DNA of 64,000 nucleotides from Eledone cirrhosa (Eukaryota): the NCBI GenBank assembly GCA_964016885.1, contig OZ024741.1, positions 35,216,001 to 35,280,000 on the forward strand, read 5' to 3'. Both the position numbers and the translations under genes were made by a program. Of this stretch, positions 53,680 to 64,000 are shown in pieces; the stretch's first letter is position 1, and each line of letters begins with the position of its first letter. Below the pieces are notes generated by a model that was given only the letters and a program-made list of their open reading frames with translations, ran no database searches and was not told where the DNA came from.

Positions 53680-56600
53680 TAGATAAATCTACCAAGAGTT
53701 TACGGTAGTGTCCAATCCGTATGAAGAACTCAATGTATTCCGGATATCATGGAAAGAAGAGATGAAATGAAAAATCACTTTCGGTGAAAGATAAACGGTA
53801 TACAGAGTCAAGATAAAATATTAAACAAATAATGAATAAAACAATGAAACAGTTCCTTATATTAAACAAAAAAAGTTCATTATTTAACGATCGTTTCTAG
53901 GATATATATGTGTTAGAATTGGCATGCATATTCAACAGATCTATGTACAAAATTATACAAAATTATACAAACTATCAAGATTAAATATACATACCAACAC
54001 ATATATACGCCGTCTTCAGAAATAATGAAATATATTTATTGATAATAACAACAATTCAAAATTTCAGGTCCGTTTGGGAACAAAATTGACCAATGAAAAT
54101 ACAAAAGGTTTTATGCAGTTCGGTGTGTGTATATACATGTAACTACCCTTACACATATTTTACAAAAATGTATGCTCAACATGTATACGCATACCAAAAG
54201 GATGGATGCAAATACAAAATTTCAAGGTTAATGTCTCTGTAAGTTTATAATGCACAGATAAGATGCGTATAGACACATAAATATGAAATAAGTGTATACA
54301 CATATTCTCATACTCACACATATCCGTACAATCACACACACGCGCGCGTATATGCATAAACATACACATAATTACGAACATACAAACACACACACACCCC
54401 CACTCACATATATATATGTGGATATAATATCATAAGCACATGGATATTAATTCACTCACATAAACACTGTCACACACATTTAGATCAAGATACAGAAATT
54501 AGGTGGGAGATGGGGAGAGGTCAGTATTCAACGGTTTGGGCAGACTGCTTATTATAGATGTATCTATAAACTAAGAAAATAAAAAGAAAAAAGAAATATA
54601 TCAAGAAAATATATATATATATATATATATATATATATATACATACATATATATATATATATATACATATATATATACACAAACACATACATACATATAC
54701 ACACATCCACACTTAGAACATACATACACACACATATATAAACATATACAAATACACACATACACACATATACACACATACATATAAATATATATATATA
54801 TATATATATATATATATATATACACACATATATACACATATAATCACACAAACTATATAGACACACATATATATACACACATACACGCACATATACATAC
54901 ACATACATACTTATATACATACAGATATACACATACATACCTATATATAGACGCAAATTCATACAGATATACATACATACATACGCACAAATACTTACGC
55001 ATCCATATATCGGTATATACATACAAACACCAACTACACTCTCACACAACTCAGACATACAAAGAAAAAGGTATATACCTATATACATATACATATACAA
55101 ATAGAGATACATATACATATATATATATATATACATACACATATATATATATATATATATATATATACATACACATATACACACATATACATACATACAC
55201 ATACATACATGTACACACACATACATATACATACACCTACACATACATACATACATATATAGTCATACACACACATACACCTACACGAACATACACATAC
55301 ACATATATAAAGATATATATATACACACACACACATACACACACACACATATATATAAAATAAAGATATATATATATATATATATATATATATATATATA
55401 TATATATATATATATATATATATATATATACATACATATACATACACACATACATAGACATATATGTACATACATACACATACATACATACATACACACA
55501 CATATATACATATATATACACACATAGACACATCCATACATACACACACAACATACATACACACACATATATACTCATACATAGAATTAGATATATATTC
55601 ATACATACATATGCACTTACATATACTCATATATACAAATACATACGCATCCATATATGCGTATATACATACAAACACCACTACACCCTCACACAACTCA
55701 GACATACAAAGAAAAAGGCATATACATATACATATATACACGCATTAATAGAGATATATATACACATATATATATATATATATATATACACATACATTTA
55801 TATATATACACCCACACACACATACAACCATAAACACACATACAAAACATACAAACACACACATACACATATATATACACATACATATATATACACACAC
55901 ACAAAAAACAGACATACATATATATATTTTTTTACACATATATATACACATATATATACATATACACACCCTCACATATACACACATACACATAAGTTAT
56001 ATTATAATAATAAATAATATATATATATATATATATATATATATATATATATATATACACATACGAATATAGACATATATACACACATAGATATATATAT
56101 ATATATACATATACACACACACACACACACTCACATATATATGTGTGTGCGCACACGCACATACATACACATACACACATATACACGTAAACACATACAT
56201 GTGCATACATGCACATACACACATATACCCACATAGATACGAAGATAGACATATAAATAGAGAGACATACATATATATACACACACATATATACATACAT
56301 ACATACACACATATATATATATAAATATATATATATATATATATATACATACACACATACACGCCCACACACATATACACATATACACATATATATACAC
56401 ATACACACATACACATACACATATATATACACATGCATATATACACACATATATATACATACACACATATATATACACACAATCTTACATTCTTATTTGC
56501 ATGCGCATATATGTATTTTTATATTCAGATATAAATACCCAAACATATATACACCTACCTACATATATATTAATACATACACGCTTACAAACACAGATGA

Positions 56601-61300: not shown

Positions 61301-64000
61301 AACATATAATTAATGGTATACTTATTTATTTTGAAATGCATAAATTTTGCCTTATTTCTTGTATTTCCTAACACTGAAACTATGTAAAAACATACATTGG
61401 ATCCAGATACAGATAATATTCTATGTTTCTTGAAACATATATTTACTATAATCCCCTTCTCCACCCCCCCCCCCTTTCCCCCATACTATTATCATCTGTG
61501 TTTGTAAGCGTGTATGTATGAATATATATGTAGGTAGGTGTATATATGTTTGGGTATTTATATCTGAATATAAAAATACATATATGCGCATGCAAATAAG
61601 AATGTAAGATTGTGTGTATATATATGTGTGTATGTATATATATGTGTGTATATATGCATGTGTATATATATGTGTATGTGTATGTGTGTATGTGTATATA
61701 TATGTGTATATGTGTATATGTGTGTGGGCGTGTATGTGTGTATGTATATATATATATATATATATATTTATATATATATATGTGTGTATGTATGTATGTA
61801 TATATGTGTGTGTATATATATGTATGTCTCTCTATTTATATGTCTATCTTCGTATCTATGTGGGTATATGTGTGTATGTGCATGTATGCACATGTATGTG
61901 TTTACGTGTATATGTGTGTATGTGTATGTATGTGCGTGTGCGCACACACATATATATGTGAGTGTGTGTGTGTGTGTGTGTGTGTATATGTATATATATA
62001 TATATATATCTATGTGTGTATATATGTCTATATTCGTATGTGTATATATATATATATATATATATATATATATATATATATATATATTATTTATTATTAT
62101 AATATAACTTATGTGTATGTGTGTATATGTGAGGGTGTGTGTATGTATATATATGTGTATATATATGTGTAAAAAAATATATATATGTATGTCTGTTTTT
62201 TGTGTGTGTGTATATATATGTATGTGTATATATATGTGTATGTGTGTGTTTGTATGTTTTGTATGTGTGTTTATGGTTGTATGTGTGTGTGGGTGTATAT
62301 ATATAAATGTATGTGTGTATATATATATATATATATATGTGTGTATATATATCTCTATTAATGCGTGTATATATGTATATGTATATGCCTTTTTCTTTGT
62401 ATGTCTGAGTTGTGTGAGGGTGTAGTGGTGTTTGTATGTATATACGCATATATGGATGCGTATGTATTTGTATATATGAGTATATGTAAGTGCATATGTA
62501 TGTATGAATATATATCTAATTCTATGTATGAGTATATATGTGTGTGTATGTATGTTGTGTGTGTATGTATGTATGTGTCTATGTGTGTATATATATGTAT
62601 ATATGTGTGTGTATGTATGTATGTATGTGTATGTATGTACATATATGTCTATGTATGTGTGTATGTATATGTATGTATATATATATATATATATATATAT
62701 ATATCTTTATTTTATATATATGTGTGTGTGTGTATGTGTGTGTGTGTATATATATATCTTTATATATGTGTATGTGTATGTTCGTGTAGGTGTATGTGTG
62801 TGTATGACTATATATGTATGTATGTATGTGTGTATGTATGTATATGTATGTGTGTGTACATGTATGTATGTGTATGTATGTATATGTGTGTATATGTGTA
62901 TGTATATATATATATATATATATATATATGTGTATGTATATATATATATATATATGTATATGTATCTCTATTTGTATATGTATATGTATATAGGTATATA
63001 CCTTTTTCTTTGTATGTCTGAGTTGTGTGAGAGTGTAGTTGGTGTTTGTATGTATATACCGATATATGGATGCGTAAGTATTTGTGTGTATGTATGTATG
63101 TATATCTGTATGAATTTGCGTCTATATATAGGTATGTATGTGTATATCTGTATGTATATAAGTATGTATGTGTATGTATATGTGCGTGTATGTGTGTATA
63201 TATATGTGTGTCTATATAGTATGTGTGATTATATGTGTATATATGTGTGTATATATATATATATATATATATATATATATATATATATATATTTATATGT
63301 ATGTGTATATATGTGTGTATGTGTGTATTTGTATATGTTTATATATGTGTGTGTATGTATGTTCTAAGTGTGGATGTGTGTATATGTATGTATGTGTTTG
63401 TGTATATATATATGTATATATATATATATATATATATGTATGTATATATATATATATATATATATATATATATATATTTTCTTGATATATTTCTTTTTTC
63501 TTTTTATTTTCTTAGTTTATAGATACATCTATAATAAGCAGTCTGCCCAAACCGTTGAATACTGACCTCTCCCCATCTCCCACCTAATTTCTGTATCTTG
63601 ATCTAAATGTGTGTGACAGTGTTTATGTGAGTGAATTAATATCCATGTGCTTATGATATTATATCCACATATATATATGTGAGTGGGGGTGTGTGTGTGT
63701 TTGTATGTTCGTAATTATGTGTATGTTTATGCATATACGCGCGCGTGTGTGTGATTGTACGGATATGTGTGAGTATGAGAATATGTGTATACACTTATTT
63801 CATATTTATGTGTCTATACGCATCTTATCTGTGCATTATAAACTTACAGAGACATTAACCTTGAAATTTTGTATTTGCATCCATCCTTTTGGTATGCGTA
63901 TACATGTTGAGCATACATTTTTGTAAAATATGTGTAAGGGTAGTTACATGTATATACACACACCGAACTGCATAAAACCTTTTGTATTTTCATTGGTCAA
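58320..64000 (+). mobile_element. Penelope-like retroelement, probably Hydra clade; 5'-truncated, runs off the window
   Basis: RT + GIY-YIG ORF followed by AT-rich and microsatellite-rich 3' sequence that is duplicated in inverted orientation upstream. Confidence 0.85.
58449..60380 (+). CDS. Penelope-like polyprotein: reverse transcriptase + C-terminal GIY-YIG endonuclease
   Basis: LKDHK..RLI, QFDIDNYY, TMGS, LYRDD, NFLDI, CNCRNKANCPLKGNC, IVYKC..YIGAT..KTRFNTH, CRLC..E, LLN, SCNHK. Coding-like sequence extends back to ~58322 across a frameshift in the A-run near 58414-58421; no true start codon. Confidence 0.92.
   Translation: MALKRPHFNLKDHKSNFNSNPSIRLICPSKSDIGIISKKILDRVIPQIRKHVILPLWENTSQVINWFKNIRCKSSASFLQFDIDNYYSSISPILLNKALIFAKNRSNLTLDDINIITHARLTLIEFQNEYWTRNTYSNLFDITMGSSDSAQITDLVGLFLLFNINASFPHLKGGLYRDDCLLLSNNLSLSEIEKNKKHIRTFLKDYYNLHITFEKTSKVVNFLDITLDLATGIYQPYHKPNQNLHYIHSQSNHPKSILKNLAYNISLRISNLSSNQDVFDKNATFYNEALDRSGHKNRLEYIPSTKNTESIQPNITNKHQMKSTHLNATHTIPQNTKSSNIKYSNSQKTTHHTTLININNKTPNKKDKTPKSTNITKNGCGEIININPPSKHHDTTYKNNKNNKQHRDRNRRVTWYNAPFNLQIKDNIAKKFFYILEKNFPPNHKYHQILNRSTVKFSYSTTNNIKQNISAYNAYKCKKTISIPPVHQINHNISSNTELTKGCNCRNKANCPLKGNCLVNNIVYKCNVKTKDSICSYIGATSNNFKTRFNTHKHSFKNAALANTTSLAEKINSYKNKNIEYDLTWSVLKRATPYQNNRNECRLCSQELFEIMKSKDILLNKRQELIISCNHKLKKTFKYYKPN

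Follow-up and report, generated by a model that had tools for sequence, protein, structure and literature searches.

How does a retroelement come to carry kilobases of microsatellite, and do such repeats belong to the element or to the DNA in which it landed? The question is raised by a locus of Eledone cirrhosa at the right-hand end of a 64,000-nt window (the whole stretch of DNA that was analysed: positions 35,216,001 to 35,280,000, forward strand, of contig OZ024741.1 in assembly GCA_964016885.1; coordinates below count from its first letter). At this locus, a Penelope-like element with the motifs of the Hydra clade forms a long inverted duplication. On balance, we lean towards a recent insertion whose RNA held a 4-kb, microsatellite-rich 3′ region with a predicted hammerhead ribozyme; the repeats were probably copied together with the element and are probably a property of its lineage rather than of this copy alone. 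The features that define the locus are listed below, with RT for reverse transcriptase and ORF for open reading frame.

53505-53678, no strand: (TA)87 run at the 3′ end on the left, taken to be the target site
53680-58319, minus strand: left arm (4640 bp), a 5′-truncated inverted copy with the nuclease-coding end of the ORF and the entire 3′ region
53680-54608, minus strand: terminal, mostly non-repetitive segment (930 bp) that contains the hammerhead, with (TA)n on both sides
53876-54029, minus strand: predicted type I hammerhead; core at 54019, stem I of 10 bp, stem II spanning 115 nt, stem III palindromic
54609-56481, minus strand: left copy of the TA/TG/TATG mosaic (1873 bp)
56780-57776, minus strand: decayed copies of the 3′ end of the ORF (73-78% identity), flanking a 118-bp block
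57714-58319, minus strand: C-terminal part of the ORF in the left arm, with CxCX5C linker and GIY-YIG nuclease
58319/58320, no strand: head-to-head junction, where the ORF is also cut short at its 5′ end, in the codon of a conserved Tyr
58320-59774, plus strand: single-copy spacer (1455 bp) with RT core and thumb, the frameshift and most of the N/T/K-rich linker
58416-60380, plus strand: open frame of 654 codons with RT (YRDD), a 119-aa low-complexity linker, CxCX5C, GIY-YIG and CxxC/CxH
59775-64000, plus strand: right arm, which runs off the window; predicted end near 64406
61610-63480, plus strand: right copy of the TA/TG/TATG mosaic

The sequence does contain the inverted duplication. A first reading of the window from its letters (the sequence-only reading) had proposed an inverted duplication of more than 4.2 kb around a 1.45-kb RT spacer, and both the arms and the 1455-bp spacer were recovered where it had placed them. 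In a global alignment of 54086-58319 with 59775-64000, in which 58319 pairs with 59775 and 54086 with 64000, we counted 4184 matches, 12 substitutions and 9 gaps totalling 68 bases. Eight of these gaps are changes in microsatellite units and one is a homopolymer site. The substitutions are unevenly distributed: the 1873-bp mosaic has 10 of them and the remaining 2361 bp have 2 (Fisher p 0.008). Beyond the mirror position of the window edge, the left arm goes on for another 406 nt and at 53680 abuts the (TA)87 run; outside this run lie the head of a tRNA-like short interspersed element (SINE) and then older repeats. Both breakpoints of the inverted structure fall within the ORF. Alignment with homologs revealed that about 135 N-terminal codons have been lost exactly at the junction, and that a +1 frameshift in the A8 run at 58414-58421 puts 34 more upstream codons in another frame. 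Because this copy is truncated and frameshifted, it is likely not autonomous. A read-through RNA of the locus would fold into a 4.2-kb hairpin.

The 3′ region measures 4034 nt, and the distance from the stop codon to the hammerhead is 3695 nt. Purine-pyrimidine alternation reaches 89% in the mosaic versus 3.4% in 1-53504. A second microsatellite, a 118-bp TATG block at 57141-57258, lies nearer to the stop codon and brings the repeat content to about 2.0 kb per arm, in agreement with the roughly 2 kb that the sequence-only reading had noted between stop codon and hammerhead. Runs of at least four TA units number 33 per 4-kb tail, or 8.2 per kb versus 0.67 in the rest of the window. Within the mosaic, an internal duplication was detected at an offset of about 647 bp, with 80% identity over about 350 columns. 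No SINE or long interspersed element (LINE) fragment known from the window was found in the 3′ region, unlike the left flank, which is made of such fragments.

The first approximately 750 nt of the 3′ region consist of decayed copies of the ORF end, which enclose the 118-bp microsatellite. The ORF-end unit recurs three times (z 8.8, 16.1 and 11.7; 0 of 300 shuffles in each case) with scores of 77-92, compared with 38 for the best of 534 outside windows, and the last of the three copies lies beyond the 118-bp block. These repeats are significant to about 56960 and weak beyond. They have diverged by 22-27% and yet the frame is open over 652 codons, whereas none of 1000 simulations at 20% divergence kept it open; the repeats therefore predate the insertion. 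The 118-bp microsatellite and the ORF-end repeats around it are old and element-borne, and the 3′ region grew before the latest transposition. The large mosaic, whose internal duplication is older, belongs to the duplicated unit and stands in both arms between the stop codon and the only hammerhead; most likely, therefore, the present insertion copied it. The suggestion of the sequence-only reading that the microsatellite is transposed cargo consequently holds outright for the small block and is the most likely account of the large one.

The motif near the outer end of the arm is predicted to be a variant type I hammerhead with a long stem II. Both catalytic-core strings (CUGAAGA and GAAA) are present, cleavage is predicted after 53886, and the region has a folding z of −6.9. 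The stretch 54029-53876 is the sole match with a stem I of at least 6 bp on either strand of the 64 kb, and no match was obtained in 200 block-shuffled windows or in 2000 shuffles of the terminal 406 nt. Its CUGANGA core is also the only one in the 4034-nt 3′ region; a search for a decayed hammerhead near the stop codon gave no convincing candidate. The left arm ends 196 nt past the hammerhead, exactly at the (TA)n run, and the mirror image of the hammerhead would occupy 64057-64210, beyond the window, the same coordinates that the sequence-only reading had given in its prediction. Hammerheads are said to be universal in the Hydra clade, and a palindromic stem III has been described for hammerheads of such elements (PMC4209133), while the 115-nt stem II span departs from the norm. 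Rfam reported no hammerhead in the whole window at the gathering threshold, nor in 53400-54700 at an E-value threshold. Canonical hammerheads were missed as well in four of four control loci from relatives, so that this negative result is uninformative. A natural hammerhead whose stem II spans 115 nt would be one that searches with covariance models overlook.

To which group does the element belong? A single ORF encodes RT and a GIY-YIG nuclease, with YRDD and IVY..YIG motifs, as in endonuclease-positive (EN+) Penelope-like elements, and the locus also has the inverted, 5′-truncated copy that, like tandem copies of this kind, marks these elements. The nuclease lies C-terminal to the RT, as it does in the Hydra clade, for which we followed the motif definition in PMC8557442. 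A CxCX5C motif is located at residues 512-520 and recurs in 117 of the 120 listed homologs. The nuclease does not have the CCHH motif, as no CxxC occurs between GIY and YIG; two Cys that lie nine residues apart in this interval are not conserved. A CxxC/CxH motif flanks the residues E and N (C610, C613, E616, N629, C638 and H640). The RT4 motif reads MGSSDSAQ. RWK and DKT motifs, found in 82 and 109 of the 120 listed homologs, respectively, map to the truncated N-terminus. Insertion at (TA)n, another Hydra-clade trait, is seen at the left end only, and the size of below 3 kb that is typical, though not diagnostic, of the clade is exceeded, since the element measures about 6.1 kb despite its truncation. 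These motifs support a Penelope-like element of the Hydra clade. The sequence-only reading had identified a Penelope-like element, which is borne out, and the inverted 5′-truncated copy and predicted terminal hammerhead to which it had pointed as Penelope hallmarks fit those of this clade.

Naiad identity was rejected because of the domain order, with the nuclease at the C- and not the N-terminus. The same observation, together with an N-terminal region of the homologs that lacks a nuclease, led us to reject a Naiad/Chlamys placement. Penelope/Poseidon, Neptune and Nematis were rejected as the CCHH motif is absent, as is the CX2-5CxxC linker of Neptune and Nematis.

Among 8000 candidates scored, 1347 were protein homologs, and the 120 listed share 33-51% identity with the window protein. 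In a quick tree of 70 rows (the window protein and homologs P0002-P0070, with P0001 and P0071-P0120 excluded), the protein grouped with six long-branch relatives, one of them named from Argonauta hians (Shimodaira-Hasegawa-like approximate likelihood ratio test, SH-aLRT, 100). A 23-row tree that included fragments left its placement unresolved. Neither tree contains reference clades, and the clade call accordingly rests on motifs. Pfam gave no match for the window ORF protein; among 29 alignment members, it gave weak matches to GIY-YIG in two and to RVT_1 in one. A PDB sequence search with the window protein gave no match. The linker from the thumb to WxNPP is 119 aa long and rich in N, T and K; among the 120 homologs, it could be measured in 107, where its median length is 24 and the longest is 72. 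It holds an in-frame, Asn/Thr/Lys-rich insert of 109 codons (59352-59679, plus strand) between the RT thumb and the nuclease linker, which exceeds all 107 measured homologs. Asn-rich inserts are among the features described for rotifer elements.

The layout of the locus is ordinary for the clade, in which inverted, truncated, hammerhead-bearing and (TA)n-ended copies occur; the inverted-copy layout is described as frequent in the literature. One scan of genome contigs gave 14 related loci (L001-L014). A hammerhead lies 3′ of the ORF in 10 of them, 80-212 nt past the stop codon and with a stem II span of 12-31 nt; in the other four, the sequence ends too early or no hammerhead match was found. 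Inverted arms over element sequence are present in four (L002, L004, L005 and L007), and in L007 and L004, whose ends were examined, the two arms have a common end base and unlike flanks. The 14 loci are, as we read them, Hydra-type animal retrotransposons in contigs filed as bacterial metagenome-assembled genomes, which likely reflects host contamination. Three loci (L004, L008 and L012) contain clusters of several different hammerhead-plus-(TA)n ends.

In PMC8557442, 27 Hydra families are listed with sizes of 1080-3045 bp, and 26 of the 27 have (TA)n targets; one family, Penelope-13_HM, is given with an attached 5′-truncated inverted copy. With the clade as described there (Hydra-1_Obim, Penelope-13_HM), our element shares the C-terminal GIY-YIG without a CCHH-type CxxC, the CxCX5C motif, the CxxC/CxH on either side of E and N, an end at (TA)n, a predicted type I hammerhead on the 3′ side whose stem III is palindromic, and the 5′-truncated inverted copy. 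It differs from the listed families and from their hammerheads, tabulated at 80-100 nt, in its approximately 6.1 kb despite truncation and in its 115-nt stem II. The Hydra-1_Obim consensus, compared by eye, represents a different family. Naiad elements, which are present in Octopus, likewise have (TA)n targets and inverted truncated copies, but their nuclease is N-terminal with CCHH and they have no canonical hammerheads (PMC8557442). What is unusual here is the 3′ region, with its 4034 nt, long stop-to-hammerhead distance, long stem II and about 2 kb of TA/TG mosaic. In the literature that was searched, no Hydra-clade element is described whose 3′ region holds kilobase microsatellite; such a consensus may exist in Repbase, Dfam or Octopus repeat libraries.

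Target-primed reverse transcription at (TA)n with an early stop, self-priming and re-extension is the most likely origin of the locus. The GIY-YIG domain would nick a (TA)n run, where the RT would prime and copy an RNA of about 6.1 kb from its 3′ end, through the hammerhead, the mosaic and the nuclease gene, until it stopped about 135 codons before the ORF start. The new strand would then re-prime on itself 1455 nt back and extend again to the 3′ end, yielding an inverted arm of 4.64 kb that would be joined to the other (TA)n end. Since then, the arms would have diverged, chiefly through repeat slippage. The 3′ region itself likely reached its length over many transposition cycles through internal duplication and slippage, possibly after the adoption of a downstream hammerhead-bearing end. 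An ORF-less 1.9-kb segment at 31548-33429 hints that this host has long 3′ regions elsewhere too.

The inversion step may have taken another course, which is quite possible and otherwise compatible with the insertion of a microsatellite-bearing RNA that we favour. As (TA)n is its own reverse complement, both strands of the target could be nicked, and two RNAs could be reverse-transcribed from the outside in and joined head to head. A purified Penelope-like protein, predicted to form a dimer, was reported to nick and extend both strands (PMC11167929), and the 12 sites at which the arms differ could reflect two source RNAs. On the other hand, the concentration of 10 of these substitutions in the mosaic is expected from later slippage, and self-priming, proposed on an antisense template, is the published reading of head-to-head junctions. 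Both courses lead to the same product, and one locus cannot separate them.

Several observations weigh against the reading that we favour. In the protein database, no close relative was found, the best local identities being 51% and 56%, and all 27 listed Hydra families measure 3045 bp or less. Searches of the remaining 53 kb with blastn, tblastn and a profile hidden Markov model gave no second copy. The junction shows microhomology of at most one base, itself inferred, and the right end of the element lies beyond the window. In the predicted hammerhead, a C-A apposition beside the core replaces the usual G10.1-C11.1 pair, and the active fold costs 3.1 kcal/mol; a covariance model built from seven relatives' hammerheads missed the motif at 54019, its best match being 31736-31803 (E 0.29). 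The ORF-end repeats stop before the mosaic, with z 2.6 at 57000-56801 and at most 1.5 in all nine windows further out, so the mosaic and the terminal 930 bp are not tied to the ancestry of the ORF. Finally, (TA)n lies at either side of the terminal 930 bp, as is also true of the free fragments at 31548-33429 and 33614-33940.

The last two observations, the absence of ORF-derived repeats beyond about 56800 and the likeness of the terminal segment to free fragments, would also be expected if the mosaic were host DNA between the ORF and a downstream hammerhead-bearing end, carried in the RNA once, with different or no spacers in other copies. A precedent exists in Adineta vaga, where the spacers of Pen1_Av, 0.9-1.5 kb before the 3′ pLTR (pseudo-long terminal repeat), differ between copies of 90% identity (PMC3846280). 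Pen1_Av and Pen2a-4_Av resemble our element in their long spacer between ORF and 3′ structure, Asn-rich in-frame insert and head-to-head inverted copies; their spacers are copy-specific and, in the parts of that paper at hand, not described as microsatellite, whereas part of the spacer at our locus derives from the ORF's own end. This old, element-derived origin of the proximal 750 nt argues that the lineage lengthens its own 3′ region. Capture is also at odds with the failure to find a decayed hammerhead core near the stop codon and with 4 kb that are free of the SINE and LINE families common in the window. We regard a copy-specific capture as possible though doubtful.

Two further explanations are improbable. 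Foldback reads make up about 0.6% of Oxford Nanopore Technologies (ONT) reads of genomic DNA, according to PMC12870357, and an assembly artefact from such a foldback or chimeric read would be consistent with a right end outside the window and with a homopolymer frameshift and repeat-length differences that could be base-calling errors. However, the offset between the arms is 1455 bp compared with a default foldback definition of within 200 bp in that source, 12 substitutions separate the arms, Hydra-clade elements are known to produce such a layout, and in a smaller inverted unit at 50537-51708 both ends are visible, with different flanks. Alternating TA/TG arrays are break-prone, and a repair foldback that duplicated a resident element and a neighbouring microsatellite at the DNA level, with no RNA step, would look identical inside the window, but with both breakpoints within the 2-kb ORF and an arm that ends 196 nt past the hammerhead, exactly at a (TA)n run, we consider it likewise improbable.

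Does the family seed microsatellites in the host genome? The sequence-only reading had suggested that it may do so genome-wide, which found no support, as no copy, linked fragment or anchored block is present in the remaining 53 kb. We examined 21 alternating-repeat blocks of at least 40 bp at or left of the element end, and none could be tied to element sequence; anchors common to these blocks and the tail are restricted to four isolated 14-mers and one low-complexity match. The largest mosaic outside the element measures about 320 bp. In Octopus vulgaris, recently active Penelope insertions average about 5.5 kb (329 insertions, 1,795,539 bp), a weak pointer in the opposite direction, though tandem or Naiad copies could also explain it. 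It is conceivable, although we think it unlikely, that in a (TA)n-targeting family about 2 kb of compound microsatellite has become a fixed part of the RNA, so that the family makes its own landing sites, twice as many upon inversion, and that its truncated copies contribute measurably to the kilobase TA/TG mosaics of the host, in a feedback loop between a transposon and its target.

Should the tail be a family trait, Hydra-clade elements would span more than twice their known size range, and a telomerase-related RT would be seen to copy kilobases of slippery alternating repeat. The family would then be a testable source of long compound microsatellites, and there would be a reason for mis-annotation, as repeat masking and short-read assembly would cut such elements at the mosaic. 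If the tail is specific to this copy, spacer capture by Penelope-like elements gains a second and larger example, whose interest is modest. Delivery or breeding of simple repeats by retroelements is described for L1/Alu (PMC3812793) and lepidopteran RTE families (PMC2887409). The tails or seeds there appear to be short, in contrast to the ready-made kilobase mosaic within our element, which contains the inferred target repeat.

Other (TA)n-associated segments were observed in the window. The segment at 31548-33429 (minus strand, 1.9 kb) lies between (TA)n runs and has a hammerhead-like core at 31795 (model E 0.29); it contains internal decayed duplications of 72-82%, shows no RT or nuclease remnant, and may be a long 3′ end from a different Penelope-like family. 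A 327-bp segment at 33614-33940 (minus strand), also between (TA)n runs, carries a 45-bp internal inverted repeat and a hammerhead-like motif at 33817 with a palindromic stem III and one stem I mismatch. A third, weak hammerhead-like motif (E 1.8) at 40246-40334 (plus strand) has a stem I of 4 bp and a stem II span of 52 nt and lies about 50 bp before (TA)n. The unit at 50537-51708 comprises 1.5 tandem copies (90%) of a non-coding sequence of about 480 bp and an inverted copy of 442 bp (98%), with (TA)n on both sides. A canonical hammerhead was not seen in it, and it looks like a (TA)n-targeting, non-autonomous element whose fold-back layout is the same.

The remaining features are mostly further mobile elements. 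The frames at 21124-25296 (plus strand; gag-like, protease/RT and RNase H/integrase) are what we take, from their motifs, to be a Gypsy-type long terminal repeat (LTR) retrotransposon, and matching stretches near 20239 and 25573 are possibly its LTRs. Remnants at 9626-11322, 33965-34796 and 51745-53068 are, by their motifs, presumably RTE-type LINEs; they repeatedly adjoin one SINE family and (TA)n runs. Likewise on motifs, we assume a Tx1/L1-type remnant at 47480-50139 and another RT-type remnant at 17328-20029. A 276-codon open frame at 16196-17026 (minus strand), with one homolog at 46% identity, is possibly a host exon.

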